Shown here in pieces: positions 7,529-63,083 of a DNA stretch of 64,000 bases. Source of the stretch: Kiritimatiellia bacterium (GTDB lineage Bacteria > Verrucomicrobiota > Kiritimatiellia > RFP12 > UBA3636); the NCBI GenBank assembly GCA_050942875.1, contig JBMNOD010000001.1, positions 16,597 to 80,596 on the forward strand. The letters run 5' to 3'. The translations under genes were made by a program, and so were the position numbers. The first letter of the stretch is position 1; every line of letters begins with the position of its first letter. A model generated the notes under the pieces. That model searched no databases. It was not told the DNA's origin and saw only the letters and a list, made by a program, of their open reading frames with translations.

Positions 7529-8188
7529 ATGGCAATGAAGCGAGGTCGAATCGGTTTGTTTGGCGGGAGTTTCGACCCCGTCCACAACGGCCACTTGGCG
7601 GCGGCGCGCAAGGCGCGGGAGGCCGGCGGCCTGGACGAAGTCGTCTTCATCCCCGCCGCGACGTCGCCGCTCAAGATCGGGCACATGGTTGCGTCCGATG
7701 CGGATCGCCTCGCGATGCTGCGCCTGGCGCTTGCGGGCGAGGCGGCGTTTTCGGTCTCGGATTACGAGCTTGCAAAGTCGGGCGTATCGTACACGATCGA
7801 CACGGTGCGGCATTTTACGTCGGCCTGGCCTGAGGCTCGCATCGTCCTGATTCTTGGGGCGGACTCGCTGGCGACGCTTTTTCAGTGGCGCGAGGCGCAG
7901 GCGCTCGTGGATTCCTGCGAGATTCTGACGCTGGCGCGTCCGGGGTGGCCGGTCGATCGCGTTTCGGAGTTCGATGGAAAGACGACGGCTCGGCTGCTGT
8001 CCGGCGTCGTGGCCGACTTTTCGCAACCTGTTTCGTCCTCGGAGGTTCGGCATCGTCTCGAAACAGGCCATCCGGTTGCGGGGCTTGTCCCAGCGCCTGT
8101 GGCCGATTACATTCAGGATCGCGGGCTTTACCGTCGATCATTCGACATGAAACCAGAAAAGAATTCAGAAAGCAGTTTTTCCAGTTGA
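7529..8188 (+). CDS. nadD: nicotinate-nucleotide adenylyltransferase
   Basis: GLFGGSFDPVHNGH (H/TxGH motif) and SSSEVR (ISSTxxR-like). AAGGAGG Shine-Dalgarno 5 nt before ATG 7529; the ORF track starts at GTG 7502. Confidence 0.85.
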   Translation: MAMKRGRIGLFGGSFDPVHNGHLAAARKAREAGGLDEVVFIPAATSPLKIGHMVASDADRLAMLRLALAGEAAFSVSDYELAKSGVSYTIDTVRHFTSAWPEARIVLILGADSLATLFQWREAQALVDSCEILTLARPGWPVDRVSEFDGKTTARLLSGVVADFSQPVSSSEVRHRLETGHPVAGLVPAPVADYIQDRGLYRRSFDMKPEKNSESSFSS

Positions 8189-8275
8189 GCGTCTGTGCGC
8201 AGTGTGGTAGAATTCCCGTATCAAATGAGATGTGGGGCAGGGCGATGAACGCCCGTCGAATTCAGTGGAGTCCTA

Positions 8276-11200
8276 TGATGAAAACAATCAAATCATTTTC
8301 CATGAAGTCTTTAGCATGTGCCATGGCGGCACTTGTCGCTTCGGCGACACTTGTTGGGGCGGAGTTGACCGCCCCGCAGATTGATCCGGGAAGCGGCTTT
8401 GTCGCGGCCGGACAGGGAACGGCTTGCACTGTGGACTCGCCGCCTGTGATTTCTGTGGGGGCTTCCGGGTATGACGCCGTCTGGGTCAACTTCCGGTATC
8501 AGGGTGCGACGTGGCGGCTTCCCATGACGAACGGCGTGACATCGTATTGTCTGAACATGCCGGTCATCCCTGCTGGGACGATTGAGTACCGCATCGAGGC
8601 CGGAACGGCCTTTGATCCGTATTCCTCCACGAACACCGTGGACTCCCTGCCTGTCTCCGGCTATTATAGCTACGAAAACACGGCGACGCTGAGCAACGCG
8701 CGAAAACCTAATCTGGTGACGTGGTATGACAACAAGTTTTACCCGGGAGGCTATCTCAACAATGAAGAAACTTACAGCGGTTTGATTGATAATGATTGGC
8801 GTGCTATTGAGCTTAGCATGAACCCCCATTATCTTATCTTGTCGGGCTACGAGGAATCACAAGGACAGTCTTATGTCGATCCTGCGCTTAGATCCCAGGC
8901 CTCCCTGTTGGTTGGAAGCATCTGGTTCAAAGCTCGATACAAAGGCAACGAAGGAAGCGGCACCCTCGTTATTGAGCGTTCTGCTCTTCCAAGTTTCAGG
9001 TCTTCCCACGCTGAGGTTGAGACCATCCAAGTGCCGGCGACGACGGGCTGGGTTCAGTACCGAATTGATCTAAATGACGTTTCCGGCTTCTACTACCGGG
9101 TTCGTCATCCGTCTGGTGCGGAGTATGGTGATGCAAACATCGACATCAAGGACATTGTGTTCTCTCCGCCTGTTCCCGACGTGGTGATCACGAAGTCGAT
9201 GATGGAGCACGTCCCTGGCTATCCTTCCCGCAGCGATCCGGTGACGTTCACCATTTCCGTTACCAATGTCTTCGCCGCCGTACCGGCCTTGAACATCTCC
9301 CCCAAGCTCGTCTGGCGCCTGAACAAGGGGTTGACGCCGGGTGTCTGGAACACCACGCCGATGTCGCCGATCGGCGGCGACCAATACCAGGTCACGTTGC
9401 CGCCTCTCGATCCCGGCGACTTCCAGTACTACTATCGCGCCGACTTCACCGGCTATGCCTACACGGGCAGGATTTACGGCCCCGACACCGGCTCCACGCA
9501 AGATGAAATCGTCAATCTCGACGAATTCTCCAAGTGGATCGACAACAACGACAACATTGCCGAGACGCGCTTCCCGGCCTACTATCCCGATTTCACGGAC
9601 AGCCAGCTCTACGACCTCGGCGTCGATCCCCCGGTTTGCAACAACGACGGTTCCGTGCTGGACAAGGTTTTCGAGCCTTTCAGCCATCTGGGCTTCACGG
9701 TCCGGCGTTTCCGTTCCAAGCATAATGAAGTCACGCTGAACATCCAGGACATGTCTGGCAACGGCCTGACGATTGATCCGATGTACAGCATGGAGCAGGT
9801 TGGCGACTATATTTGGCAGTCGGTGATCTACATGACGAATGCCGCTGCTGAAGGCATCAACGTCGATGTCGGCATCGCCGTGCAGGGAACCGACCGCTAC
9901 GAGGCCCCCAACACGTGGTACGAGGCCGAGCCGTACAATTGGCTTGCGATCGGGCAGGAAGACACGGCATGGAACCCGCCGATGGCAGGGGTTCTGAACG
10001 ATGACGCACCCGGCGGCACACCGCGTCTTCGCGTCCAGATCGACTACGACGGCTTCATGATGTTCCGCTTCTGCACGACAAACGGCAATTACGAGATCCG
10101 TCGCGCCGCTTGGCAGGACTTCAACACATGGCAGGCGCTGGACTCCCAGGACGCCGGATTCACCCGAAGCTTCGGTCTCTATGAGACAACGTCCTTCGAG
10201 TCCGATCTCGACGACTTCCCGGAATCGACAATGGGCTCGGCCGGCTTCACGCCCTTTGAACTCGGGACGACCGTGTCCGACGACATGCTCTTGTCAACTT
10301 ATCTCAACGGCATCACGGTCGATAAAGCCTGGGTGATTGCGGATCGCGAACGCCCGCCCATACCCATGCCTGACAGGACTGCCCCGAACCGCGCACTCAA
10401 GCTCTCGGCCCATCCGGCTCTGCTCGGCTCCATCGAGACGACGTCGAGAACTCGCACAGACGGGCGCGACACCTTGACGTTCCGCGTCCGCGCGTCGGTG
10501 GACGACGACCACCGGAGCTACTACCGCCGAGGTGATGCGTTTGAGAACTACATCTTCGAAGCCAAGGCGACGACGACGTCGATGTCCGATGGCAATGCGT
10601 CCATCTCCGTCTTCGGCTACTATCAGGATGAATTGAACTACATTGAGGGTCGTCTGACCCAGACCACGACCCTTCGTACGACTTCGCCTGACTATTACGT
10701 GTTGAGAATGGACTTGATCCACATGAAGGAAGGCCGCGAAACGTTGCTTGGAACGACGACTCATGGGAACAACATGAGGCTGACCGGCACGTGGACTCTG
10801 AAGCTGAAGGTTGTTTCCTCCGGAGGGAACCAAGGCACGGCAAGCTTCATTTTGAACAACGGGACCACAGACGTCAAGTCGATTCTTGACAAGGCTTTTA
10901 CGGTCGACTCATTGATTCCGATGGGTGGCACGGTGGGCGTGAACGCCAGCGATGCGGCCACGGCATTCGAGGTGAGCATGACCGACAGCGCCAGCCAACC
11001 TTTTTCGCCTGATATTTCCAAGTCGACGGCCCTGAACTGGTATCTGGGAGGCAGACTTGATGCCGATTCCCCCAGTCGCTGGACGTTTACGTCGCCGTCA
11101 TCGAAGGCGACACTCACCCGTGCCATCCCTGCTGTGAAGTACCGCGTCAACGTCTATCGCGACGGCACGGAAACAAACAACGTCGTGGCGCCGGTGCCCA

Positions 11201-13794
11201 CGGACACCGAGGATTGGGATCAGGACTGGGACGAGTTTGGCACCGAGGATCGCGAGCGCCAGACCCAGTCGCTGGCCTGGCAGACGGTGTCCGTCCCCAT
11301 GCATCTCTGGGACAACGTCTTCATCCAGATCAAGCCCACAGGCTCCGACGGCGCCCTCGTCGTGGACGACCTGGACGTCAACGCCTGGCAAGGCCATACT
11401 TTGTACGACGAAGCGCTTCTCGAGAACGACCCGCACGAAGAACTTCCCTGGAAGGCGACCTACGCTGTCAGGTCAAAAGTCAACAACAACATCTTGTACG
11501 AACTGAACCGGACGCGGGCGAACCCTGTCGAGAACCAGATGATCGTCTCCCCGCTGCTCGTGAACGGCATCGGCGACCTGCTCTTCAACTACCGCGTCGA
11601 CAAGGGCAACGTGACATTCTCAGTCCAGACGCTGCTGATCAACGGCGCCGTCGACCAGACGCTGCTCACGACGAACGTCGTGGCCGGATCGACGATCGAG
11701 CGCATGTACGTCGCCGCCCTGACCAACATGACCGGGCGCTTCCGCATCATCATCGATCCTCTCGAGAGCTCTCGCGATGGCATCCTCTATATCGACAATC
11801 TCAAGGCGACCGACTATCCCGCCGTCGGCGATACGTCGTGGGCGGCCTACAACCTCCTGATCTCCACCTACCCTTGGGATCCGGAGTGCAAGTTCGACGG
11901 CGCGGCCAACACCGACTACCGCAGCGCCACGATCAACGACGGCTATGCGAACAACACGCCGCTTGGGGTCGCCTACGATGAAGACGAGCCCTACCTCCAG
12001 TCGCCGAGGATCGAGACCGGCATTGGCGAGGTCAGCTTCTGGTACCGTCGCTATCCCGGTGCGACGAAGCCCGGCAAAGTGTACTTGAAGGCGGCCAAAA
12101 ACGTTCAGGACTTCGACAACAACCCTGGCGCCGTCCTCACGCTGGGTGTGGTGGATCTCAATCCGGATTCGGAAACTTTGGATTCTCAGATCGCCTGTCT
12201 TGAAAACATCACCAACGTTACAACCGACGTCTGGACCTACTTCAGCGTCGAGTTCTACAAGGCCGACTACAAAATCCTGCGTCTGTATGGCGACACGGAG
12301 ACCGCCGGACGCGTGATGGTCGACAACATCATCGTGACGGAGCCGGTTCGGTCGTCGATCGACATCGAGTCCGTCGAGCTGATTCCCGAGATTCCGCTCT
12401 CCACCGACAAAGTCGGCGCTCGCGTGAAGCTTGTGAATCCGCGCATGAATCCGACCGGCATTGAAGTCTATCTGCTCTACACCATTGGCACCAACCAATG
12501 GGGGCGTGAAAACTGGTCGCCCAGCGCGGCTTCCGTTAAGCTTGATCCGGTGCCCGGCAAGCCCTACGAATACGTTGTCGCCGATGCCATCCCGCAGCTG
12601 CCGGTCGACACGGTCGTCCAATACACCGTGGAGGTCGTTTACCAAGGCACCTTTGCATCACCCGTCTATTACGACGAGGCGTTCGTCAACCCGTCTTGGT
12701 ACGCCCCCATCGATTTGAACGAACAGTATGCCGACGCCGGAAAATCACCCTACTACTATGTCTTCTCGGTCGGAACCAACGTTGTGTTCATCAATGAGTT
12801 CCTGCCCTACGCCTATTCGTACGGCGCCTATCTCGGACTTGATGAACAGTATGTGGAGCTGGTCGGCATAGACAAGGGGAATGTTGCAGGCTGGAAGCTT
12901 GAGCATGTCAATGTGGAGGCCAGCGCCTATGAAGACGTCGTCAAGTGGACGAATGTGTTGAAGCCCGGCGCCAAATTCGAGTCGCGCTTTGTCGCCGGCT
13001 CGCAGGAGCCGAAGGACAAGGGCTGGGGCTTCTACACCCTCGCTTGCTCCGGAGTCAACAGCGAGAATCCCAACTTCTCCGTCGTTTCCCCGAATGAGAT
13101 TGTTGTGGATCAGGAGCTCTTCCCGCGACACTTCTACAATGAAAACCACACTGGTTTTGCGCCAGGATTTGAAGGCCGTGGCATGGGCGTCCCTGGGGCG
13201 CTCTGCCTGCGACGCAGCATGGGCGCCTATGTCCAACGGATTGCTTGGGGCTCGGACACGGCGGTGGCCCAGCTTCTGCAGCGAGGCTATGAGTACGCCG
13301 GAGACCGAGGCACTGGAGCCAACCGCCGTCGGCGCGTTTTCATGTGGGCCGACAATGGCGCCTTGGAACCAGAGCTTGCCTGGGTGTTGCTGTCCGAGTC
13401 TCTCTACTCGCCAGGCTACTACAACGATGGCCAGGCCGAGCTGATCTGGAAGATCGATCCCGCCGAAGAAGGAGAACCGACGACCAAGCCGGAAATCGGA
13501 CAGCCCAGGATCACGTCGATCGCCCTTGGCGCGACCTCGGCGACGCTCGAATTCGACGTCTGGACGGTCAACGGGGTCGAGCTGGCGAACGACAACTTCA
13601 CCTGGTACGTCGAGACGTCCGAGGATCCGGCCTTCGCCAATCCCACAGCCCATCCGATTAATGCGGGAACCGCTCCTACTCCCATTACCGCGCCTTCGGA
13701 CGGCACGCCCAGTTCCTACTCGGTCGACGTTGACTTCGGCGCCCCGGTCTCGCAGAGTCTGTTCTATCGGATCAAGGCAGTCCCCAGACCTTGA
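8276..13794 (+). CDS. giant secreted protein (1839 aa), function unknown, with lamin-tail-like segment
   Basis: GGAG Shine-Dalgarno then ATGATG at 8276; signal peptide MMKTIKSFSMKSLACAMAALVASATLVGA. Long beta-rich Thr/Asn/Tyr/Trp-rich sequence. Near aa ~1490, NVVFINEFLPYAYS...DEQYVELVG...NVAGWKLE resembles a lamin-tail domain. No catalytic motif recognised. Confidence 0.7.
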
Positions 13795-18845: not shown

Positions 18846-19334
18846 AGTTCACGGAAGAGCCGAAGTGGTGGATGAAGAGCGATGAAGCGCCCCCCCTTCG
18901 GAGACTTGGTCGCTTTATTGGGTTTTTGGATCCGTCGGATTGGGCGGATCCGTCGGATCGGACGGATCGTTTGACGACGAAACCGACGCCCTGCACAAGC
19001 TGCAGTGCCAGCGGCGACCGCAGTTTCCAGCGGCACGGCCCGTGATGGGCGAACCAGAAGCCGGAACGCTGGAGCCCGCAAAACGTTTGTAGTGGGCCCG
19101 TAAGGGTCTCTTGCGCAAGGACGACGAATGAAGCGCCCTTCGGGTTTTCATTCGCAAGCCCTTGTTTCTCCATGCGCCGCAGCGCCTCACGGCGCCACTA
19201 CGAACCTTGAACCCCTGTGGACGCGGCGTCCCCGCCGCGTGTCGTTCCACGCGCTGCGCGTGGCAGGATGTCCACTCTGGGGTTTTTGGAGTCAGAGGAC
19301 GGGGCGAGGGCAAAACTTTGGGTGGGCGCACGGC

Positions 19335-34004: not shown

Positions 34005-34726
34005 GGGTGTGTGTCAGAAAAGTGACAAACAAATCCAGCATTGCCTATGTCATGCGTATTGAAAGGGTTTTTGTGTAGTGCTTTCGCTGCAATCGAACCG
34101 TGCCTTGCACCGTCGCTGTTTTCTCCTTTTCAGGAGGTGTGTTTTCATTGCCATGCCCCTCCCTGCACGCCTCTGTGCCTGTTTAGTGAGGAGTGAGAAG
34201 TGAGAAGAGCGTAGTTCAGGCCGGGGACACCCCAGACCCCGTTTTTAGACAGGGTTGCAGGATTTGCAGGATTAGGATTGGACTCCCCGGAATCTTGTCA
34301 ATCTTGTAATCTTGTCCAAGACTGCGCCACCTGCGCCGCGCCACCTACGATTTTTGTGGCTATGAAGGGAACTTGGAATTGGGGCGTGGCCGTGGCGGCT
34401 TCGCCGAGCGGGGAATGGCCACGAAAAACACAAAGACGCACAAAAAGTGGGTGGCGGTGGTGGGGGTTTGGACAAGATTACAAGATTGACAAGATTGCCT
34501 TGGTGGATGGAATCCTATCCAAAAAACGGGGTCTGGGGCGTCCCCGGCCTGAACTACGCTCTACGCTCTTCTCACTCCTCACTATGCGAAGGGCGACGCG
34601 GCGCAGGTGGAGGTTTTTGATCTAAAACAGGCACAGAGGGGGATTGGTTTTGAATTTGGCATCAGGAATGCCTCCATGTTTCATGGAAGCTCAAGGAACC
34701 ATGTTACGATTCTGACACACACCTTG
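34005..34726. mobile_element. MITE-like non-autonomous element, copy 1 (~722 bp), with giant internal foldback
   Basis: 15-bp terminal inverted repeats GGGTGTGTGTCAGAA (34005..34019) and TTCTGACACACACC (34713..34726). 8-bp direct repeat TGCAAGCC abuts both ends (33997..34004 and 34728..34735). The interior ~34165..34645 is a long near-perfect palindrome. Confidence 0.6.
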
Positions 34727-50476: not shown

Positions 50477-50517
50477 AAGTTTCCATTACCCAATAGAGGC
50501 CAAATCAAAACACGCGA

Positions 50518-50558
50518 TATGAATTTGCAATTTTAATATGAATTTGCAATTTTAATTG
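50518..50558. promoter_or_regulatory. tandem 20/21-bp direct repeat (TATGAATTTGCAATTTTAA x2), putative operator in divergent promoter region
   Basis: Perfect tandem duplication in an AT-rich island between the minus-strand membrane-protein operon and the plus-strand DUF4886 gene. Confidence 0.4.
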
Positions 50559-51532: not shown

Positions 51533-53625
51533 AAGCATTCGCCAGCGTCCTTGCCCTGCTCGCCGCCTTCACGCCGATGACGTCCGCATTGGCGGCGTTC
51601 CCGGAGTTCGCCGACATCCCGGATCATGAGAAAATGCCGCCAGGAGCGACCGTCGCCTTCGGCGAAGGCGCAGTGCTCGTCAACGGCAAACCGCGCTTTC
51701 TCATCGGCGCGACGTTCTTCCAGGACGCCGAACGCGACGCCGAAGTCCGCACCACGGGCTACCCGCAAAGCCTGTCCTGGATCTACGAGAGCCTGCCGGA
51801 CTACGCGGACGCCCAGCGTCTCGGGCTCGACGCCTTCGGCGCCACACCCGCCCGGACGTGGCGGCGTCGCTACCGTCCCAGGCCCGTGCCGCGCCGCAAC
51901 ATGAACATCCTCGGCCGTCCCCTGAACGCCGGCGTTCCCATCCTCGCCGAACTGGCGATCGAACCCGGCACCCACGCCTGGATGACGTACATGGAAGGCG
52001 TCAACCCGCCGGAAGGCGCCTGGTTCGACGGCATGGCGCACGGCATCCCGTACAGCGTCGCCCACGTGCACGGCACCGCGCTTTGGAAAAGAATCTGGAG
52101 CTCCGACGCCGCCTACTACCGTCAAAACGGCGTCACCCCCTTCGCCTGGCGCCTCTTCGCGGGCGCAGACTTCTTCGACACCGACCGGCGCAACACCACC
52201 GCCTTCACCCAATGGCTCAACGCGCGCTGGAAAACACCCGCCGAATTCAACAAAGGCCTCGGCGCCTCGTTCAGCTCATTCCCCGTCGCAGCGCGTGCCG
52301 AAAAAAACGCCTCGAACCTCGGCTTGACGGTCGAGTACGTCAAATTCCTCGAAGACCGCTTCGCCCTGCTCTGCACCCAGGCGGTGGAAATCGTCCGCAG
52401 CGCCACCGGCGACCCCGCGCCAGGCGTCTGCTTCCAGCCGCTGCGCGCCGACGGCAAAGGCATCGACATCCTGCAAGCCGCCGCCAACCACCCCATCCTC
52501 TGCGCGCCCGCCAACCAGACCCAGCCGCGCTATGTTGCACTCTACATGCAGGCCGTCGCACAGGGGCGCCCCGTCTTCTCGCCGCCCGTCCGCCCCGCCA
52601 TCGACGCCGAAACAACCCGCGCCGACATCCTCTCGCAATTCGCCCGCGGCTACGCGCTCTGCTACCTGGAGAAATGGCGCCGCCACCCGCGGGAATGGGT
52701 CAAGTACACGCGCGACGACGGCCCCACGCGCCTCGACGAAGCGGCCACCGAAGCGGCGGGCCGACAACACGCCGCCGAAAACCCCGCCAACTTCATGAAC
52801 CCCTACGCCGTCCCGCCCGAGGCGCTCCTCGGCATCCGGCTCGCCAAGCAGGACGCACTCAAGGCGGCCGAACTCTTCACGCTCGCCAACCGCACCAACG
52901 GCGCCCACGTCGCCCTGCTGCATTCGCGCCCGTCCGTGCGCCTCGCGCACGCACGCGGCGACCCCAAGCCCCTCGACACCCTCCCGCAATACGCCGACGC
53001 CCTCGTCTTTGCGCAGTTCAAGACGGCCCTCGTCCTCGAAGAACAGCTTGCCGACCAAGACCTCTCGCGCTACGCCGCCATCGTCGTCCCCGACGCCTGC
53101 CGCGCCTCGTATCCCGAAACCCCCGCCGCCCTTCGCCGCTACGCCGAACGCGGCGGACGCCTCGTCGTCGCCGCCGGCGCGCTCTCCCAAAACGAGCACG
53201 GCGCCAACGCCACCAACGCCCTCGCCCTGGCCTCCGCCCAAAACGAGCCTCGCACCCAGCCCCTCGGCGGCGGCAGGGTCACCACCCTGCCACCCGGCTT
53301 CGCGGCGACAAACCTCGTCGCCTCCCTCGGCGCACTGCTCGACGGCCTCGACGTCCCCCGCGCGTGGCGGGGTCTCGACCCCGCCACAGGACAGACGCTC
53401 GCCGGCATCGAAGGCACCCATGCCCGGGCGCCAGACGGACGCCATGGCCTGATCCTCTTCAACCGCACCGACGCGCCCTTGCCGGCGCTCGTCAGCATCA
53501 CCGGCATCGCATCGCCAAAGGCCACCGACCTCCGCACCGGCAGCCCCCTCCCCAGCCGCGACGGCAAAGTCGAAATCACCCTCGCCCCCAACCGCGGCGA
53601 GATGATCCTGATCACCGCCAACTGA
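51529..53625 (+). CDS. secreted hypothetical protein (698 aa), possible glycoside-hydrolase-like
   Basis: ATG 51529 overlaps the upstream stop (ATGA). Signal peptide MKAFASVLALLAAFTPMTSALA; no definitive catalytic motif recognised. Confidence 0.55.
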   Translation: MKAFASVLALLAAFTPMTSALAAFPEFADIPDHEKMPPGATVAFGEGAVLVNGKPRFLIGATFFQDAERDAEVRTTGYPQSLSWIYESLPDYADAQRLGLDAFGATPARTWRRRYRPRPVPRRNMNILGRPLNAGVPILAELAIEPGTHAWMTYMEGVNPPEGAWFDGMAHGIPYSVAHVHGTALWKRIWSSDAAYYRQNGVTPFAWRLFAGADFFDTDRRNTTAFTQWLNARWKTPAEFNKGLGASFSSFPVAARAEKNASNLGLTVEYVKFLEDRFALLCTQAVEIVRSATGDPAPGVCFQPLRADGKGIDILQAAANHPILCAPANQTQPRYVALYMQAVAQGRPVFSPPVRPAIDAETTRADILSQFARGYALCYLEKWRRHPREWVKYTRDDGPTRLDEAATEAAGRQHAAENPANFMNPYAVPPEALLGIRLAKQDALKAAELFTLANRTNGAHVALLHSRPSVRLAHARGDPKPLDTLPQYADALVFAQFKTALVLEEQLADQDLSRYAAIVVPDACRASYPETPAALRRYAERGGRLVVAAGALSQNEHGANATNALALASAQNEPRTQPLGGGRVTTLPPGFAATNLVASLGALLDGLDVPRAWRGLDPATGQTLAGIEGTHARAPDGRHGLILFNRTDAPLPALVSITGIASPKATDLRTGSPLPSRDGKVEITLAPNRGEMILITAN

Positions 53626-53867
53626 CCCGCAAGTCTCGCCGCAAATGTTTTCGTGGTCAGTCAGATTGGCCGGATCAGGCCGATCAGCATTTCCGTACAG
53701 CAAAGTGGACGCGGCGTCCTCGCCGCGTGTCGCCGCCTGCGCCCCAGTCTCCACCCTGCCACACGCCCTCTTTCATCATGGCCACGAAAAACAAAGACCA
53801 CACAAAAAAAATCTGTGCTTTCTATGCTTTCTATGGATAAAAACCGCCAAGGACGCCAAGCAACTCT

Positions 53868-53947
53868 GTAATTCTGTAATCCATAATTCGTAATTCCACC
53901 ACCCTCGCCCATCCACCTTCTTTTTGCGTTTTTCGTGGCCATTCCCC
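53868..53947 (+). repeat. 80-bp direct repeat, left copy, flanking the R-M island
   Basis: GTAATTCTGTAATCCATAATTCGTAATTCCACCACCCTCGCCCATCCACCTTCTTTTTGCGTTTTTCGTGGCCATTCCCC; near-identical copy at 56354..56433. Confidence 0.7.
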
Positions 53948-54278
53948 ACCCACCCATGCCACCCTTTCACAGTTCGACAAAGTTCGCGACAAAGCGACAA
54001 AGCTGTCCTCCGGCAAATCACAAATCACAAATCACAAATCTAAAATCACTGGCGACAGGCATCGACTGGACAACAGGGGCTTGAAACACAGCCCTCCGGC
54101 CCAAATTTCAAGTTTCAAGTTTCAAACAACACAGAGAACCACAAGAAAAAATCTGTGCTTTCTTGTGGTGGTTCATGCGTTTGACCCACATTCAGTTGAA
54201 TGCTATACTTTCCGTCAGTCTTTCATGCTTTAATACGGGTCATACGGGTCTTGCCCTTTACTCACGGAAACGACAGAC

Positions 54279-54929
54279 ATGCCAATCCTAAACCGTCCCT
54301 TCAAACGCGAAGAGCACGTTTACGAAAACGAGCAGTTTTCGGAAATGCTCAAAGACGCGGTTCGATTTTTTCACGGCACACCAGTCTTCAACATTCCGCC
54401 TCCCGAGAAGTTTTCCGGCGCCGGTGTCTACGCCTTGTACTGCCTTTCACGATCGGGCATGTACAGCAAGTTTGGCAATGAAATTAACCGCACGGCGTAT
54501 TCTGTGCCGATTTATGTCGGAAAAGCCGTGCCAAGAGGATGGCGGCAGAACAGGATGCTGGATAAACAAGAGTCTGGGAACGTTCTCTTTTCAAGGTTGT
54601 CCGAACATGCGTCAAGCATTCAAGCTGGCAAGGGGCTTTCCATCGATGATTTTGCCTGTCGGTTTGTCATTTTCGAAGGAGAGTCCGCCGGCATGATTGG
54701 CGCAGTGGAAGCTGCAATCATCCGCGAACACAATCCACTCTGGAACAGTGTCATTGATGGCTTTGGAAATCACGATCCCGGCTCCAAGCGAGTGACAGGG
54801 CGAATGACGCAATGGGATGCACTCCATCCGGGAAGAGCCTGGGCGGCTCGCATGGAAGGCGAGAAACCGGACGCAAAAGATTTGCTCCGCCGGGTGAAGG
54901 ATTACATGGTGGGGTTGCGATGCAGATGA
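54279..54929 (+). CDS. GIY-YIG type II restriction endonuclease (Eco29kI/Cfr42I/NgoMIII family, CCGCGG-type)
   Basis: 216 aa with GIY-YIG elements GVYALY ... IYVGKA, then Arg, His and Glu and an Asn (REHNPLWN) in the canonical order. Gene order (R upstream, overlapping M by 10 nt) matches the Eco29kI operon. Confidence 0.7.
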   Translation: MPILNRPFKREEHVYENEQFSEMLKDAVRFFHGTPVFNIPPPEKFSGAGVYALYCLSRSGMYSKFGNEINRTAYSVPIYVGKAVPRGWRQNRMLDKQESGNVLFSRLSEHASSIQAGKGLSIDDFACRFVIFEGESAGMIGAVEAAIIREHNPLWNSVIDGFGNHDPGSKRVTGRMTQWDALHPGRAWAARMEGEKPDAKDLLRRVKDYMVGLRCR

Positions 54930-56056
54930 TCGAGCTTTTCACGGGTTGTGGAGGTCTTGCGAAAGGTATGGAACGGGCAGGATTCTCGCATGTGGCTTTC
55001 GTTGAAAACAATTCACACGCCTGCGAAACCTTGAGGTTGAATTTTCCGCCGGAAATCGTGCATGAAGTTGACATCCGGTCTTTTGATTTCTCTCGATTCG
55101 GATCGGTGGAAGCCATCGCAGGGGGTCCTCCATGCCAGCCTTTCTCGCTTGGAGGCCTCGCCAAGGCGCATAAAGACCATCGCGACATGTTTCCCGAGGC
55201 TACGCGCGCCATAACCGAGCTTGCGCCCCGGGGCTTTATTTTTGAAAATGTCAAAGGGCTTTTGCGACAAAGTTTTTCTGAGTATTTCCAGTACATCATC
55301 CTCCGCCTGACATACCCTACCTTCCACAAGGCTGATGGTGAACACTGGAAAGAGCATCTAGCCAGGCTGCAGTCCCTTTCCTATCAGAACTATACGGGGT
55401 TGAAATACCAGGTTCAATACAAATTGCTCAATTCCGCCGATTACGGTGTGCCTCAAGTGCGGGAACGCGTATTCATCGTTGGCCTTCGCGACGATGTCGC
55501 AACCCCTTGGAACTGGCCAAAACCGACACATGCGCGAAGCAATTGGAAGACCATTCGCGAGGCCTTGGCGGGGTTGCCAGATCCACAGGACAGGCGCAAC
55601 ACGTTGTCCGACCATGTTTTTGTTCCAGGAGCGAAGCCTTATCCCGGTCATGTGGGCAGCCCCATTGATCGTCCAAGCAAGACGATTAAAGCCGGGGCGC
55701 ATGGCGTTCCGGGTGGCGAGAACATGATTCTTTTCGAAGATGGAACCGTGCGGTATTTTACTGTTCATGAAGCGAAAATCATACAGACTTTCCCAAGCGA
55801 CTACTCGATTTCCGGCCCCTGGACCGAGGCGATGCGTCAGATTGGAAACGCCGTTCCGGTCAGGCTTGCCGAGATTCTAGGACGACAGCTTTTCAAGATT
55901 CTGTCCGCATCAACAACGGATTCGGAACCTATTCGATATCGCTCCGATTCCTCTGGCAATCTCCTGCTTGTCGAACGCTCCCGTAAGCATGCGCGGGATG
56001 CCTTTTATTCACATTCCGAAGCATCAACAGCATCCGATGTTTGTTCCAGCTACTAA
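54920..56056 (+). CDS. DNA (cytosine-5)-methyltransferase
   Basis: Start MQMIELFTGCGG (motif I), GGPPCQPFS (motif IV PCQ), ENVKGL (VI), QVRERVFIVG (VIII), GNAVPV (X). Track ORF 54812..56056. Confidence 0.9.
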   Translation: MQMIELFTGCGGLAKGMERAGFSHVAFVENNSHACETLRLNFPPEIVHEVDIRSFDFSRFGSVEAIAGGPPCQPFSLGGLAKAHKDHRDMFPEATRAITELAPRGFIFENVKGLLRQSFSEYFQYIILRLTYPTFHKADGEHWKEHLARLQSLSYQNYTGLKYQVQYKLLNSADYGVPQVRERVFIVGLRDDVATPWNWPKPTHARSNWKTIREALAGLPDPQDRRNTLSDHVFVPGAKPYPGHVGSPIDRPSKTIKAGAHGVPGGENMILFEDGTVRYFTVHEAKIIQTFPSDYSISGPWTEAMRQIGNAVPVRLAEILGRQLFKILSASTTDSEPIRYRSDSSGNLLLVERSRKHARDAFYSHSEASTASDVCSSY

Positions 56057-56353
56057 CCCGGCCACAAATAGCGTTGCGCACGGAGATTGAGGCATGGGAT
56101 CTGGAATTTGGCGTTGGAAAAGGGGCACGGACATTCCTGTCCGTGTTCGTCCACGGGTTGGAAAACCCGTGCCCCTGATTTGCAGCATGAATTATGGCCG
56201 GGTTAGTAGTTGGCTGGCAGACTTCACATGTCTTGGCTGCTGGTTGTCAGGAATTCCTGCGTCGGGTTGTTTGCCAATTTGGATTCCTCAGGCGAATCTT
56301 GCCAATCTTGCAATCTTGTCTAAAAAACCACTCGGCGAAGCCGCCACAGCCAA

Positions 56354-56433
56354 GTAATTCTGTAATCCATAATTCGTAATTCACCACCCTCGCCCATCCA
56401 CCTTCTTTTTGCGTTTTTCGTGGCCATTCCCCC
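56354..56433 (+). repeat. 80-bp direct repeat, right copy, flanking the R-M island
   Basis: Matches 53868..53947 except for one indel (TTCCACC vs TTCACC). Confidence 0.7.
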
Positions 56434-56584
56434 AACTCGGCGAAGCCGCCACAGCGCCACACCCCAGCTTCCAGTTTCAAGTGTCAAGTTTCCAACCAAT
56501 ATGCTATTCTTTCACCCATGCAACCATGCAGGACTCTAGACCATGGTCCATGGACTCTCGAAGTTTTTCCCATCGCCCACCACC

Positions 56585-56796
56585 CTTCGTCTAGTGAGGA
56601 GTGAGAAGTGAGAAGAGCGCAGTTCAGGCTGGGGACACCCCAGACCCCGTTAGGATCTACGTTTCTGTATCTTTCTGTTGTCTTCTGTGGACAAAACTTT
56701 TACCCCCACCCACCCCTCCGGTCAAACCGGGGTCTGGGGCAGCGCCCCAGCGGAAACTTCTCTCTCCTCTCTACGCTCTCCTCACTAAAACCAACC
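56585..56796. repeat. foldback (long inverted-repeat) element related to the core of MITE copy 1
   Basis: Left arm GTGAGGAGTGAGAAGTGAGAAGAGCGCAGTTCAGGCTGGGGACACCCCAGACCCCGTT and complementary right arm ...CCGGGGTCTGGGGCAGCGCCCC...CTCTCCTCAC. The same arms occur at 34186..34245 and 34525..34583. Confidence 0.6.
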
Positions 56797-56835: not shown

Positions 56836-58227
56836 ATGACGCCTAAAAACCTCCGAAACATCCCGCAGACCGGCCGCATCCTGGAGACCGACGCGTTCGC
56901 CGCGCTGGCGGCCGCGTTCGGACGCGACCGCGCCGCCCAGGCGGTTCGCGAGGCCATCGAGGCGGCGCGAACCGCCATCCTCGACTCGCCGGCCGATCTC
57001 CCCGCGCCCACGGCCGACGCGCTGCTCGACGCCGCGCGCCGCGCCTTGGCAGCCGACGACGCCCCGGGCATCAAGCCCGCCGTCAACGCCACCGGCATCC
57101 TCCTCCACACCGGCCTCGGACGCGCGCCCATGCCCCAGGCCGCCCGCGACGCGGTCGCCCGCTGCATGGGCTGCTGCAACCTCCAAATGGACATGGGCGA
57201 CGGCTCGCGCATCCACCGCGAACACGCCATCCGCGACCTGGTCCGCTCCCTCGTCGGCGCCGAAGACGTCGTCCTCGTCAACAACAACGCCGCCGCCACG
57301 CTGCTCGTCCTCGCCGCCCTCGCCCCCGGCCGCGAGGTCGTCGTGTCGCGCGGCGAGCTGATCGAAATCGGCGGCTCGTTCCGCCTCCCCGACATCATGG
57401 CGCAAAGCGGCGCCAAACTCCGCGAAGTGGGCACGACCAACAAGACCCACCTCAAGGACTACGAGCAGGCCATCGGCCCCGAGACGGCCCTGCTCATGAA
57501 AGTCCACAAGAGCAACTACGACATGGTCGGCTTCACGAAGGAAGTCGGCATCGCCGACATCGCCGCCGTCGGCCGCGCCCGCGGCGTCGCCGTGATCGAC
57601 GACCTCGGGTGCGGCGCGATGGTGCCGCTGGAACGCTTCGGACTCCCGCACGAAATGACGCTCGCCGAAAGCCTCGCCGCCGGCGCGGACCTCGTGCTGT
57701 CCAGCACGGACAAGCTCGTCGGCGGCCCCCAAGGCGGCCTCGTGGCCGGCAAGGCCGCGCTCGTCGCCAAAATCCGCCGGCACCCCCTCTACCGCGCCTT
57801 CCGCATCTGCAAAATGACGCTCGCCGCGCTCGAAGCCACGCTCCGGCTCTTCAAAAGCCCGGAGACGATCGCCGAAACGCATCCGCTCTACGCCATGCTC
57901 GCGAAGCGCCCCGACGCGCTCCGCGCCCAGGCCGACGCCCTCGCCGAGCAGCTCCGCCCCCTCCTCGCGCCGACGCCGGTGGACGTCGTCGCGCACGAGG
58001 CCTTCCTCGGCGGGGGCGCCGTGCCGGCGCAGCCCCTCCCCTCGTTCGCCGTCGCCATCGCGACGACCCGGGCCGACGCCCTCGCGCGCGCCTTGCGCGC
58101 CTGCCGCGTGCCGGTCTGCCCGCGCATCCACGACAACGCGGTCTTTCTCGACATGCGCACCGTCTCCGAAGCGGAGGCGGCGCACATCGTCGACGCCTTC
58201 CGCGAAATCTCCGGGGGCGCCTCATGA
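56836..58227 (+). CDS. selA: L-seryl-tRNA(Sec) selenium transferase
   Basis: 463 aa with SelA regions VNATGILLHTGLGRAP and PLP-lysine region STDKLVGGPQGG. Confidence 0.85.
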   Translation: MTPKNLRNIPQTGRILETDAFAALAAAFGRDRAAQAVREAIEAARTAILDSPADLPAPTADALLDAARRALAADDAPGIKPAVNATGILLHTGLGRAPMPQAARDAVARCMGCCNLQMDMGDGSRIHREHAIRDLVRSLVGAEDVVLVNNNAAATLLVLAALAPGREVVVSRGELIEIGGSFRLPDIMAQSGAKLREVGTTNKTHLKDYEQAIGPETALLMKVHKSNYDMVGFTKEVGIADIAAVGRARGVAVIDDLGCGAMVPLERFGLPHEMTLAESLAAGADLVLSSTDKLVGGPQGGLVAGKAALVAKIRRHPLYRAFRICKMTLAALEATLRLFKSPETIAETHPLYAMLAKRPDALRAQADALAEQLRPLLAPTPVDVVAHEAFLGGGAVPAQPLPSFAVAIATTRADALARALRACRVPVCPRIHDNAVFLDMRTVSEAEAAHIVDAFREISGGAS

Positions 58228-60188
58228 CCCCCGCCCCCGCCACGCCAACGCCCGCGCGCGGCGTCCGGCTCACGCTCGGCACCGCCGGCCACATCGACCA
58301 CGGCAAGACCTCCATCGTCCAGTCCCTCACCGGAACCTGGTGCGCGCGCCTGCCCGAAGAAAAGGCGCGCGGCATGACCATCGACGTCGGCTTCGCCGCC
58401 TGGGACGACGGCGAAGGCCTGAACATCGGCATCGTGGACGTCCCGGGCCACGAGCGCTTCATCCACAACATGGTCGCCGGCGCCAGCGGCATCGACGTGG
58501 CGATGCTCGTCGTGGCGGCGGACGACGGCGTCATGCCGCAAACGCTCGAACACGTCCAGATCCTCCGCATGCTCGGCGTCCGCAAGGGACTCGTCGTCCT
58601 CAACAAATGCGACCTCGCCGACGAGGCGCGCCAGGCGCAGGTCGTCGCCGACATCCGCGCCTGCGTCAAGGACACGTTCCTCGAGAACGCCGCGTGCGTC
58701 CCGTTCTCGGCCAGGACGAACGCCGGGCTCGACGCCCTGAAGGCCGCCTTGCGCAAGGTCGTCTCCGAAACGGCCGAGCGCGACGTCTCGGGTCCCTTCC
58801 TGCTCCATGTCGAACGGGCGTTCCAGCTCAAGGGCTTCGGCACCATCCTCTCGGGCATCCCGCGCTCGGGCAGCGTGAAAATCGGCGACGAAGTCGAAAT
58901 GCTGCCGGACGGCACGCGCCACCGCGTCCGCGGCATCCAGGTCTACGGGCGGGACGTCGAGCAGGGCTTCGCCGGCGAATGCGCGGCGCTGCGCCTCTCC
59001 GACCTCTCGCGCGACGCCGCCGCGCGCGGCAAGGTCGTCGCGCTGCCCGGCTACTTCGGCGCGCACCGCTTCCTCAACGCCCGCTTCCTCCACCTCCCGC
59101 AGAACCTCAAGGCGCTGGAGCCCCGCACCGCCATCATGCTCCACGTCGGCACGTCGGAAACGCCCGGCCACCTCGTCCTCCCCACGCTCGACAAGCTCGC
59201 CCCCGGCGCGGAGTCCTACGTCCAAATCCAGCTCGAACGCCCCGTCGTCGCCGCCCCCGGCGACTTCTACCTCGTCCGCCGCCGCTCCCCCGCCCAGACC
59301 CTTGGCGGCGGCACGCTGATCGACTGCTCCGACACCAAACTTCGCCGCGGGCGCGGCGACTGGGCCCGGGCGCGCGCCGAGGCCGAGGCCGCCGCCGGCG
59401 ACGACGCCGAGAAGATGCGCCTCGCCCTCGAAAAGGCCGGGAACGATCCCGTCCACCTCGACAACTGGGCCCGCCTCGCCTCGGTCGCCCCCGACGCCGC
59501 CCGCGCCGCCGCCGACGCCCTGGCCGCCGTCGGCAAGGCCATCGCGCTGCCGGGCCTGCGCTACGTCGCCCCCGCCGCCCTCGACGCCGCCCGCGCCGCC
59601 GTCGTCGCGCGCCTCGACTCCCTCCACGCCGCGAACCCGCTCCATCGCGGCTTCGACCGGAAGACCCTCTGCCAGGGCCTCCCCGGCTCCCGCCTCCTCC
59701 TCGACCGCGTCTTCGACGCGCTCCTCGCCGACGGCGATCTCGTCCGGGAAGCCGACCGCTTCTTCCTCAAGGCCCGCGAACCCGTCCTCGACAAGCGCCA
59801 GACCGCCCTCGCCGACAACATCGCCGGCCTCTTCGAAAGCGCGCGCTACGAAACGCCGCGCCCCGATTCCCTGCCCGCCCGCCTGCACATCACGCAGGCC
59901 GAAGCCGACGCCCTCCTCGTCAACCTCTGCCACCGCGGCGTCCTCGTGCGCCTCTCCGACGTCGTCCTGCTCCACGCCGCCTGGGTGGCGGAGTCCGAAC
60001 GCCGCCTCCGCGAGCATCTCGACGCCCATGGACGCATCGACGCCGGCGCCTTCAAGGACTTGCTCAAGACCTCGCGCAAGTTCGCCATCCCCCTTCTCGA
60101 ACACTGGGACGCCGCCGGCCTCACCCGCCGGACTGGCGATTTCCGAGTCCTCCGCCAACCCGCCAACCAAACCCCAAGCCAGCCATGA
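58224..60188 (+). CDS. selB: selenocysteine-specific translation elongation factor
   Basis: Start MTPAPATP at ATG 58224, overlapping the selA stop. GTPase motifs GHIDHGKTS, DVPGHERF and NKCD, followed by a long C-terminal winged-helix region; 654 aa. Confidence 0.88.
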   Translation: MTPAPATPTPARGVRLTLGTAGHIDHGKTSIVQSLTGTWCARLPEEKARGMTIDVGFAAWDDGEGLNIGIVDVPGHERFIHNMVAGASGIDVAMLVVAADDGVMPQTLEHVQILRMLGVRKGLVVLNKCDLADEARQAQVVADIRACVKDTFLENAACVPFSARTNAGLDALKAALRKVVSETAERDVSGPFLLHVERAFQLKGFGTILSGIPRSGSVKIGDEVEMLPDGTRHRVRGIQVYGRDVEQGFAGECAALRLSDLSRDAAARGKVVALPGYFGAHRFLNARFLHLPQNLKALEPRTAIMLHVGTSETPGHLVLPTLDKLAPGAESYVQIQLERPVVAAPGDFYLVRRRSPAQTLGGGTLIDCSDTKLRRGRGDWARARAEAEAAAGDDAEKMRLALEKAGNDPVHLDNWARLASVAPDAARAAADALAAVGKAIALPGLRYVAPAALDAARAAVVARLDSLHAANPLHRGFDRKTLCQGLPGSRLLLDRVFDALLADGDLVREADRFFLKAREPVLDKRQTALADNIAGLFESARYETPRPDSLPARLHITQAEADALLVNLCHRGVLVRLSDVVLLHAAWVAESERRLREHLDAHGRIDAGAFKDLLKTSRKFAIPLLEHWDAAGLTRRTGDFRVLRQPANQTPSQP

Positions 60189-61381
60189 CACCCGAAGAAA
60201 TCCAGAAACGCAAACAAGTGATGGGCCGCTCGATCAAGCTCGGGCACTGCGTGTGCGACCCCGCCAAGCCCTGCCCCTGCCCCCTCTTCCAGGAGAGGAA
60301 CGTCTGCCTCTGCGCCGGCGAGCACCTCCCCGTGGACGACGCCGTGCCCGTCAACCTCACCGAACACGTCCGCAGCGCCGGCTGCGCCAGCAAGATCGGG
60401 CAGAAGGATCTCGACATCGTCCTCTCCAAGCTCCCGCAGACGACCGACCCCCGGCTCGTCGTCGGCGCCTCCACCGGCGACGACGCCGGCGTCTTCGAAA
60501 TCCGCCCCGGCCTCCTGCTCGTGCAGACGGTGGACGTCTTCACGCCCGGCGTGGACGACCCCTACACGTTCGGCCGCATCGCGGCCTGCAACTCCCTCAG
60601 CGACGTCTACGCCATGGGCGGCACGCCCGTGACGGCGCTCTCCATCATCGGCTTCCCCATCCACACCCTGCCGCACCGCGCCATGCGGGAAATCCTCAAG
60701 GGCGGCCTCGACACCCTCGCCGAAGCCGGCGCGCTCTGCGTCGGCGGCCACAGCGTCAACGACGAGGAAGTCAAGTTCGGCATGGCCGTCACCGGCGTCG
60801 TCGAACGCGACCGCCTCGCCACCAACGCCGGCGCCGAGGAAGGCGACGTGCTCATCCTCACCAAGGCGCTCGGCATCGGCATGATCGCCCTGGCCGGCCA
60901 GCTCGGCCGCGCGACCCCCGCGTCGCAGGCGGCGGCGGCGGAGTCCATGACCACCCTGAACCGCGCCGCCTCCGAAGCCATGATCCGCCATGGCGCGAAA
61001 GCCTGCACGGACGTCACCGGCTTCGGCCTCCTCGGCCACCTCACGCGCATGATGCTCGAAAGCGGCACGGGCGCCGAGATCGACTTCGACGCCCTGCCCC
61101 TGCTCCCCGACGTCATGGCCTACGCCGAAGCCGGCATCTACAGCGGCGCCAACGAACGCAACTCCGCCTTCGTCGAGCCCCACGTCGCCTTCGACCCCCG
61201 CCTGTCCCCCGCGCAGCAAGCCGTGCTCTACGACGCCCAGACCTCCGGCGGCCTCCTCATCCCCATCCGCGCCGACGCCGCCGACGCCCTCCTCCGCGAC
61301 CTCCACGCCACCGGCGTCCCCGCCGCCCGCGCCATCGGCCGCGTCACCGCCCCCGGCACCCCGCGCATCGTGGTGAAATGA
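60185..61381 (+). CDS. selD: selenide, water dikinase with N-terminal Cys-rich extension
   Basis: ATG 60185 overlaps the selB stop. SelD core has the Cys form of the active site, SAGCASKIG, and an AIR-synthase-like fold. It is preceded by a ~50-aa extension GHCVCDPAKPCPCPLFQERNVCLCAGEH absent from the E. coli SelD N-terminus. Confidence 0.85.
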   Translation: MTPEEIQKRKQVMGRSIKLGHCVCDPAKPCPCPLFQERNVCLCAGEHLPVDDAVPVNLTEHVRSAGCASKIGQKDLDIVLSKLPQTTDPRLVVGASTGDDAGVFEIRPGLLLVQTVDVFTPGVDDPYTFGRIAACNSLSDVYAMGGTPVTALSIIGFPIHTLPHRAMREILKGGLDTLAEAGALCVGGHSVNDEEVKFGMAVTGVVERDRLATNAGAEEGDVLILTKALGIGMIALAGQLGRATPASQAAAAESMTTLNRAASEAMIRHGAKACTDVTGFGLLGHLTRMMLESGTGAEIDFDALPLLPDVMAYAEAGIYSGANERNSAFVEPHVAFDPRLSPAQQAVLYDAQTSGGLLIPIRADAADALLRDLHATGVPAARAIGRVTAPGTPRIVVK

Positions 61382-61431
61382 GGCATAATGCCTCAAAAAC
61401 CTTTGTCGCGAACTTTGTCGCTAACCTTGTC

Positions 61432-61600
61432 GCCCCCCAATATCGTACGAGCACGGCTTCGTCCCCGCCCCGGGGCTTCGTCCCCCCCCAATATCGTACG
61501 CGCGCGGCTTCGCCCCCCAATATCGTACGCGCTCGGCTTCGCCCCCCAATATCGTACGGGCGGGGCTTCGTCCCCGCCCCGGGGCTTCGCCCCCGCCCAT
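61432..61600. repeat. tandem ~30-bp repeats (CCCCCCAATATCGTACG core, 4 copies)
   Basis: Direct repetition is visible in the sequence; a related copy lies at 62876..62915. Confidence 0.6.
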
Positions 61601-62227: not shown

Positions 62228-62570
62228 TGGCAAAGGGGCGCGGGTTTTCCAACCCGTGGCAAAGGGGCGCGGGTTTTCCAACCCGTGGCAAAGGGGCGCG
62301 GGTTTTCCAACCCGTGACAAAGGGGCACGGGTTTTCCAACCCGTGACAAAGGGGCGCGGGTTTTCCAACCCGTGGCAAAGGGGCGCGGGTTTTCCAACCC
62401 GTGACAAAGGGGCGCGGGTTTTCCAACCCGTGACAAAGGGGCGCGGGTTTTCCAACCCGTGACAAAGGGGCACGGGTTTTCCAACCCGTGACAAAGGGGC
62501 ACGGGTTTTCCAACCCGTGAATAGTTAAAGGCCAAACTCCAGGCACGGGTTTTCCAACCCGTGAACGACC
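62228..62570. repeat. spacerless tandem array of a 29-bp hairpin-forming unit (~10 full copies plus degenerate copies)
   Basis: Unit GT(G/A)GCAAAGGGGC(G/A)CGGGTTTTCCAACCC repeated head-to-tail with a strict 29-bp period. Each unit contains CGGGTT-TTCC-AACCCG. A reverse-complement copy of the unit lies at 56150..56180. Confidence 0.8.
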
Positions 62571-63083
62571 ACGGACAGGAATGTCCGTGCCCCTGGTTCT
62601 GCTGCGCCCCGCGCCTCGGCGCGGGCGAGCGGCGGCTCGCCGGGACGGCGTCGCCCCACCTCCGAAGCGCGCCCCGCGCCGGAGCGCGGGCGAATCGGCG
62701 AAGGCTATAAAACGCGGCGAGGACGCCGCGTCCACCGCGCGACGCGAAATCAATGATCCGTCCTATCCGTCCAAGCCGTCCGACCACCTTGCCGCAAGCC
62801 GTCCACTGCGTCCACCCAAACCCACCCAGAAAAAGGACGGCGCCTTTCTGTGTCGCCTTGTCGCATAAAGAGCTTTGTCGCCCCCCAATATCGTATGGGC
62901 GGGGCTTCGCCCCCCATTCAGAAGCCGCCCCAACGGGGCGTGGCATCTCGCTCTCGGTCGCCAGACGCACAGCGATGACGACAGGCAATTCTTCTCCCGT
63001 CTGTTCGCCGGCCTCCATTCCAGATCAAGCGCCTTCGTTGAAATAGACATGCAACCCGTCTTTGCCGGTTCGCCGCCGGCCTT

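Follow-up and report, generated by a model that had tools for sequence, protein, structure and literature searches.

A probable Eco29kI-type restriction-modification gene pair flanked by direct repeats in the chromosome of a Kiritimatiellia bacterium

The stretch of DNA analysed here, referred to as the window, comprises 64 kb of a contig from a Kiritimatiellia bacterium. Between the open reading frame (ORF) for a 698-aa hypothetical secreted protein (ORF785, ending at position 53625) and selA (PF03841, starting at 56836), in a chromosomal setting, lies a spacer of ~3.2 kb that holds two ORFs on the same strand. They encode a putative restriction endonuclease (R) and a putative DNA methyltransferase (M) and are flanked by two near-identical direct repeats, DR1 and DR2 (Table 1). 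The GC content of the whole spacer (53.64-56.83 kb) is 0.46-0.55 and that of its surroundings 0.65-0.77; R and M themselves have a GC content of 0.50-0.55 compared with ~0.7 for the host. Judged by homology, the two genes very probably form a type IIP two-gene restriction-modification (R-M) system of the Eco29kI/NgoMIII/Cfr42I kind in the chromosome of this GC-rich bacterium.

A preliminary description of the locus had assigned the upstream ORF, of 216 aa, to the GIY-YIG nucleases on the basis of motifs such as GVYALY and IYVGKA, and had named a profile search as the way to check this. The ORF and both motifs were found as described, and the search matched the product to the Pfam family PF09517 (RE_Eco29kI) along the entire profile (positions 1-164 of 164), with 203.3 bits against a cut-off of 30.8 and an E-value of 2.9e-60. 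The PADLOC profile REase_II was matched as well (4.6e-79). Residues 5-210 matched the R.Eco29kI structures PDB 3mx1/3nic with an E-value of 5e-69, and the identity to R.Eco29kI of plasmid pECO29 was 50% over the full length. The residues of the predicted active site, Y51, Y79, R106, H110, E144 and N156, align with Y49, Y76, R104, H108, E142 and N154 of R.Eco29kI and show no variation among 21 homologues, which include the enzymes of E. coli and Neisseria. In R.Eco29kI, mutagenesis of five of these six residues showed a role in cleavage, and no Y76 mutant was obtained (PMC1952068). R further keeps 59 invariant positions of the family and is full length, without frameshift or premature stop. The 216-aa ORF is, as predicted from these matches, a full-length Eco29kI-family GIY-YIG restriction endonuclease.

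The downstream ORF had been described as a canonical cytosine-5 (C5) methyltransferase gene, and all of the motifs listed for it (FTGCGG, PCQ, ENV, QVRERVFIVG and GNAVPV) were present in the 378-aa product. It matched PF00145 (7e-60), TIGR00675 (4.4e-52) and PADLOC MTase_II (1.1e-136), and was 51% identical to M.Eco29kI over 371 aa. Motifs I, IV, VI, VIII and X follow each other in the canonical order and are invariant in an alignment with related enzymes (alignment A1), the invariant residues being F7/G9/G11/G12, P71-C72-Q73, E109-N110-V111, Q179/R181/R183 and G309-P313; C72, within the PCQ motif, is the predicted catalytic cysteine. The target recognition domain (TRD) contains a block conserved with M.Eco29kI, PGA.PYPGH.GS.ID.PSKT.KAGAHGVPGGENMI..EDGTVRYFTV, a likeness that is no proof of specificity. 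In contrast to M.Eco29kI, M is devoid of a 42-residue segment after motif VIII and carries a C-terminal tail of ~45 residues, and both of these traits are common to its Kiritimatiellia relatives. The assignment as a canonical C5-cytosine methyltransferase is well founded as a prediction from these profiles and motifs.

The tails of the Kiritimatiellia enzymes in alignment A1 share a conserved motif, D..GN(L/F).(I/V)(I/V)E.R. The tail of M in the window stops at Y378, three residues before those of its relatives, and the stopping point coincides exactly with the start of a 168-nt palindrome.

R is located 5' of M, and its stop codon TGA (54927-54929) overlaps the start of M. When ATG 54920 is taken as the start codon (the GenBank call), the overlap is 10 nt, as stated in the preliminary description; ATG 54926, the Logan gene call, would give a classic ATGA overlap of 4 nt. 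With R in first position and the two codons overlapping, translation of M could be coupled to that of R on a single transcript. The small ORFs of both flanks had no match in Pfam, and therefore no controller (C) protein, Vsr protein or recombinase was recognised. Integrase and transposase families were absent from the flanks and from the neighbouring genes tested, and no replication gene or origin was evident in the flanks of the pair. The 64-kb window contained no tRNA genes, and no Rfam family was matched either in the island or elsewhere in it. R 5' of M on the same strand, overlapping stop and start codons and no controller protein found is the architecture of Eco29kI-type systems. A candidate promoter of the R-M operon was detected upstream of R by a scan for the sigma-70 consensus, which may not be that of the host; the site has 10 of 12 consensus matches and an extended -10 element and represents a pattern match only. 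The same scan returned an antisense site with 9 of 12 matches within M.

The Eco29kI-type arrangement of R upstream of an overlapping M had been proposed before, and the comparisons with Pfam, PADLOC, PDB and pECO29, the active-site residues and the gene order all back it. Eco29kI of the E. coli plasmid pECO29 (NC_001537; structures 3mx1, 3mx4 and 3nic) resembles the pair in its GIY-YIG endonuclease with identical active-site residues, in its C5 methyltransferase with a conserved TRD, in the order R before M with an overlap, and in having no C protein. It differs in its location, a small enterobacterial plasmid instead of the chromosome of a Kiritimatiellia metagenome-assembled genome (MAG), and in the length of the overlap, which is 1 nt there and 10 or 4 nt here. 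NgoMIII (Neisseria gonorrhoeae) and the CCGCGG enzymes of the Cfr42I/SacII type belong to the same Pfam family as R, which is 50% identical to the chromosomal homologue of N. gonorrhoeae. Cfr42I is a tetramer, and Eco29kI monomers dimerise on DNA. The recognition sequence of Cfr42I is CCGC/GG (PMC2241918). On pECO29, R is likewise followed by M with overlapping stop and start codons (PMC3039593; PMC3113576). Eco29kI is regulated in E. coli by a promoter of M located inside R and by antisense promoters inside R (PMC3113576); these internal and antisense promoters were not recognisable here. The DraR1-type system of Deinococcus radiodurans shares an Eco29kI-family endonuclease (34% identity) and the CCGCGG target, but its partner is an N4-cytosine methyltransferase, as opposed to the C5 enzyme found here (PMC10855626).

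Both proteins are present in GenBank in identical form, R as MGI5867863.1 ("Eco29kI family restriction endonuclease") and M as MGI5867864.1 ("DNA cytosine methyltransferase"), on the same 113-kb contig of a Kiritimatiellia MAG. A protein search returned 3,141 homologues, and all named entries among the top 120 were from Kiritimatiellia. Eco29kI-type R-M pairs are common in this class.

M would act as an S-adenosylmethionine-dependent enzyme with Cys72 as the nucleophile, and it most likely methylates CCGCGG at C5 on both strands. On unmethylated CCGCGG, R would most likely form a dimer and cut the sequence as CCGC^GG. Such cleavage would destroy unmodified incoming DNA and would make loss of the gene pair costly. 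The presence of CCGCGG sites in the surrounding genome had been pointed out in the preliminary description; the window contains 31 of them, none between 53598 and 57578, and an active R therefore needs an active M. The numbers expected from Markov models were 90 (order 1), 70 (order 2) and 58 (order 4), corresponding to ratios of 0.34, 0.44 and 0.53 and a z-score of about -3.6. This depletion fits a long exposure to such an enzyme.

Several observations weigh against a working CCGCGG-specific system at this chromosomal position. Judged by ratio, the depletion of CAGCTG, GGGCCC and GTGCAC exceeds that of CCGCGG, and most palindromes fall below expectation in the window. Depletion of CCGCGG in the pooled loci of relatives gave no clear signal. 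The sigma-70 consensus scan, with the reservation about the host made above, detected neither a promoter of M nor antisense promoters within R. The right junction of the locus (56078-56770) is covered by the window's own assembly only. We infer the specificity solely from homology, at ~50% identity to the characterised enzymes, and the activity, methylation state and regulation of the pair are likewise matters that we infer. Chromosomal R-M systems frequently decay, and the pair could have ceased to work, with R substituted outside its catalytic residues or silent and M effectively solitary. This appears unlikely in view of the uninterrupted, full-length frame of R with its six active-site residues and 59 invariant positions, and independent assemblies of three data sets yielded the identical R protein.

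The GC content at third codon positions (GC3) is 0.58 in R and 0.54 in M, and 0.78-0.95 in the host-like frames. R and M are foreign in composition, their GC3 being far below the 0.8-0.93 of host genes, and horizontal acquisition of the coding cassette (~54.28-56.06 kb) is supported by this compositional signal. The preliminary description had regarded the AT-rich, repeat-laden flanks as in keeping with such acquisition or with excision. Acquisition as such is backed by GC3; the flanks, on the other hand, are typical of host spacers. AT-rich spacers with tandem repeats also occur at 34.0-34.9, 50.3-50.7 and 61.4-62.6 kb. They are a host trait and not a mark of the island, and therefore provide no evidence of foreign origin.

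Homologous cassettes with 60-79% R identity are present at different chromosomal sites in other Kiritimatiellia (P0002, P0006, P0013, P0074 and others; Table 1). They share the architecture of M and the overlap and have no mobility genes; their GC content is ~50%, and that of their hosts 60-68%. These cassettes are wedged between housekeeping genes with spacers of just 20-100 bp, whereas the spacers on either side of the pair in the window measure 650 and 780 bp and contain the 80-bp repeats. Long direct repeats flanking the homologous cassettes were absent from the three loci L007, L008 and L009. Similarity at the DNA level between the window and the related cassettes was limited to 54296-55883, within the coding sequence, and the transferable unit therefore seems to be essentially the two genes.

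The two 80-bp near-identical direct repeats of the preliminary description are real, with 79 of 80 positions identical, a 1-nt indel and starts 2,486 bp apart; DR2 ends at 56432 and not, as had been given, at 56433. The indel divides the match into two exact blocks, 53868-53896 = 56354-56382 (29 nt) and 53897-53947 = 56382-56432 (51 nt). No match of this kind occurred in 100 shuffles. Left of DR1 (53836-53867, ~30 nt), the similarity to the left flank of DR2 is just ~70%, and the homology of DR1 to both DR2 and a further copy at 34.4 kb stops abruptly at 53947.

DR2 is part of a longer element. In the segment 56295-56476, AATCTTGCC tandem repeats come first; they are followed by DR2, which is bracketed by two perfectly repeated copies of a 21-nt unit (56330-56350 and 56435-56455). 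DR2 with flanks of ~60 nt (left) and ~45 nt (right) is collinear with the inverted copy at 34370-34496, which is located in an element of ~400 bp that has terminal inverted repeats (TIRs) of 60 nt (34184-34243 and 34525-34584). With a third copy in the window and DR2 embedded in a longer shared element, the repeat is multi-copy, and DR1 and DR2 belong to a repeat family of the host with few copies. Further host-type repeats lie within the segment bounded by DR1 and DR2. The stretch 53975-53994 matches 61401-61420. The 168-nt palindrome directly 3' of M has arms of 22 nt that are 91% complementary (inverted repeat I3) and a predicted RNA fold of -84.7 kcal/mol (z -6.0), and its core, a double hairpin at 56121-56173, shows a 96% match to 62542-62594. 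The repeats thus do flank the R-M pair as proposed, but they are not clean borders of a block, given the longer host element around DR2, the third copy and the host repeats inside. Short "MATKN..." frames that run across the repeat copies were considered as coding and rejected, as the copies differ by frame-breaking indels.

Table 1. Positions of the genes, repeats and other features in the window, and of related cassettes in other Kiritimatiellia
Feature	Position or locus	Strand	Evidence and remarks
Restriction endonuclease gene, Eco29kI family (GIY-YIG), 216 aa (predicted)	54279..54929	+	PF09517, PDB, PADLOC, pECO29 comparison
C5-cytosine DNA methyltransferase gene, 378 aa (predicted)	54920..56056	+	PF00145, TIGR00675, PADLOC, M.Eco29kI comparison; alternative start 54926
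Candidate R-M operon promoter (TTGACC, 17 nt, TG-TATACT)	54181..54209	+	Consensus scan; ~70 nt 5' of R start
Direct repeat DR1, 80 nt	53868..53947		Repeat search
Direct repeat DR2, 79 nt	56354..56432		Repeat search; 98.75% identical to DR1
Full-length host repeat element containing DR2	56295..56476		nhmmer vs 34370-34496, alignment A2
Diverged third copy of the element that holds DR2	34370..34496	-	nhmmer E 2.9e-9 vs 56295-56476; alignment A2
168-nt palindromic element directly 3' of M	56046..56213		Inverted repeat I3, RNA fold; left arm holds M stop codon
TIR-bounded element of 196 bp, just 5' of selA	56592..56787		Inverted repeat I1; termini as in 34184-34593 element
Examples of short-unit runs	53812-54250, 56295-56320, 34185-34569, 50517-50556		
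Related cassette between lpxI and lpxB	L007, L008		
Related cassette between ProRS, a class II tRNA synthetase, and purE	L009-L012		
Related cassette 3' of GATase gene	L013		

Nobusato and Furuta with Kobayashi are reported to have described the insertion of R-M genes with long target duplication. Furuta et al. (2010) divide the direct repeats that surround R-M genes into three classes, which originate from site-specific recombination, from long target duplication, or from chance insertion between repeated sequences (PMC2853133). Site-specific recombination is unlikely at this locus because neither an integrase nor a tRNA gene was found. The near-identity of DR1 and DR2 could date from recombination at insertion or from later gene conversion.

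We give an even chance to the repeats being two resident members of the dispersed host family, between which the cassette landed by chance or whose family later spread or was homogenised by gene conversion. The third copy and the full-length element around DR2 argue for this origin, as do the AT-rich, repeat-rich spacers across the window and the modules that the 34-kb spacer and the right flank have in common (the 21-nt unit, AATCTTGYC, TTTCAAG and the TIRs). Chance insertion between repeated sequences is, moreover, a recognised class (PMC2853133). What residence does not readily account for is the 99% identity over exactly 80 nt, compared with ~70% in the adjoining sequence and 60-90% to the third copy, which calls for something recent that affected this segment alone. 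Homogenisation by gene conversion could have this effect, but is unproven at this locus.

Tentatively, the repeats may instead be the footprint of the insertion itself, generated by long target duplication or, through homologous recombination, by a Campbell-type single crossover of a donor circle with a copy of the repeat already resident in the host; the block would then be a mobile unit of 2.4-2.5 kb that could be re-excised as a circle. The identity of 79 of 80 positions with sharp borders, next to ~70% in the adjoining 30 nt on the left, is in favour of such a footprint. The left flank of DR1 and the right flank of DR2 resemble the flanks of the 34.4-kb copy and the right flank of DR1 does not, which is the pattern expected for the order native left, target (T), insert, T, native right. 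The enclosed genes are compositionally foreign. R and M inside the repeats, a block below 20 kb, a repeat longer than 30 bp and no mobility gene found agree with the published description of long-target-duplication R-M insertions (PMC2853133), with which the locus also shares the small foreign insert. It differs from them in that its repeat also occurs elsewhere in the genome and that host-type repeats (53975-53994 = 61401-61420; 56121-56173 = 62542-62594) lie inside the block. The left flank of DR2 (56295-56353) is also of host type and collinear with the 34.4-kb copy, which gives DR2 the appearance of an intact resident element and not of a junction between insert and target. The cassettes of the relatives, with their spacers of 20-100 bp, have no flanking repeats, and the DNA homology to them ends inside the coding region.

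It also speaks against the insertion footprint that no empty site was found in searches with the upstream protein, with exact proteins and with DNA patterns. A scan of genome contigs with the upstream protein yielded one relative, with 44% identity and no synteny. The best relatives in a protein search with ORF785 were 73% and 64% identical, and selA was not adjacent in either; the comparison of presence and absence in relatives that had been suggested in the preliminary description thus ended at homologues that have lost synteny with selA. The 73%-identical relative has its own Eco29kI-type pair 6 kb away. Look-ups of the exact R, selA and ORF785 proteins led to nothing beyond short contigs from the same strain, which end at the repeats. 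Of two metagenome scans with DNA patterns derived from the repeats, the first gave nothing and the second two chance matches in membrane-protein genes. DR1 and DR2 could support a RecA-type deletion of the 2,486-bp segment, and excision or insertion through the repeats, which the preliminary description had suggested, is possible and unproven.

That the R-M segment is a separate small circle which shares the repeat and was threaded into the contig during assembly would agree with the 2-5-kb plasmids on which Eco29kI systems typically reside, with the 2,486 bp from repeat to repeat and with the singly covered right junction, but is most improbable: the indel limits the shared exact words to 51 and 29 nt, below the final word length k of common metagenome assemblers, an independent contig from the Joint Genome Institute (L002) spans the left flank and DR1 into R at 100% identity, and no replication gene or origin is evident.

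A further, rather improbable proposal is that the 2.49-kb segment bounded by DR1 and DR2 represents a recombinase-free mobile form of the R-M pair that moves into and out of chromosomes by recombination at a lineage-specific, dispersed intergenic repeat. If true, repeat-mediated mobility would explain the occurrence of Eco29kI-type cassettes with ~50% GC at different sites across the GC-rich Kiritimatiellia. In a bolder extension, the GIY-YIG nuclease itself could promote the spread in a homing-like manner.

Additional repeats were observed in the spacers of the window. A family resembling miniature inverted-repeat transposable elements (MITEs), with TIRs of ~60 nt (TAGTGAGGAGTGAGAAGTGAGAAGAGCG...), is represented by a 400-bp copy between divergent genes (34184-34593) and by the 196-bp copy next to selA; 56592-56651 and 34184-34243 are 96.7% identical, and no transposase was found in the 64-kb window. 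In the segment 62231-62594, a 29-nt unit (CAAAGGGGCGCGGGTTTTCCAACCCGTGA) is repeated ten times head to tail with 97% matches. Each copy could form a hairpin of 8 bp, and another two hairpins lie behind the array. It has no spacers and no Rfam match and is therefore not similar to clustered regularly interspaced short palindromic repeats (CRISPR). One inverted copy of its terminal double hairpin is located directly 3' of M (56121-56176). In the spacer 3' of selD (61430-61600), another 29-nt unit, CCCCCCAATATCGTACGCGCGCGGCTTCG, is present in 3.2 copies (61484-61575), with a further copy ~1.3 kb away (62875-62915). Nearly every spacer contains runs of two to five copies of 7-9-nt units (CAAATCA, TTTCAAG, AATCTTGYC, GTAATTC and AGTGAGA). 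A distant Lentisphaerales MAG (L006, 2880-2975) has AATTCGTAATTCATAATTCGTAATTCA 20 nt 5' of a start codon, with a heptamer identical to that in the 80-bp repeat, and the short units may represent a motif of regulatory or structural function across the lineage. A GC hairpin of 24-28 nt (GTGGACGCGGCGTCCTCGCCGCGT) follows at least three genes (53705-53732, 19217-19244 and 62712-62735), and the Logan contigs break there; it is probably a shared terminator-like element or one similar to repetitive extragenic palindromic (REP) sequences.

Three observations concern genes elsewhere in the window. The selenophosphate synthetase encoded by selD (~60340-61381, within ORF 58340..61381) has, in the ORF translation only, an apparent Cys-rich N-terminal extension (…GHCVCDPAKPCPCPLFQERNVCLCAGE…) before the usual GC.SK motif. 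Between 47000 and 50000, the AT skew is very strong, at +0.5, over ~3 kb of coding sequence with normal GC content, and the long ORFs there have no Pfam match. A 1,969-aa ORF at 7885-13794 has a GC content of 0.52-0.62, lower than its surroundings, and may be an acquired gene or encode a repetitive surface protein.

The R-M pair is an uncharacterised member of a well-known family with thousands of homologues, and its name in GenBank is already correct. As a probable GIY-YIG restriction system specific for CCGCGG, it extends the catalogue to the poorly studied Kiritimatiellia and has little significance beyond that. For the transformation or cultivation of these bacteria and for the reading of their methylomes the system is of practical use, as 5-methylcytosine is to be expected at CCGCGG. 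The locus may be a further case of long direct repeats on both sides of R-M genes, a class of R-M mobility already known, and the cassettes at different sites within one class of bacteria may provide a small data set on the movement of two-gene R-M systems without mobility genes.

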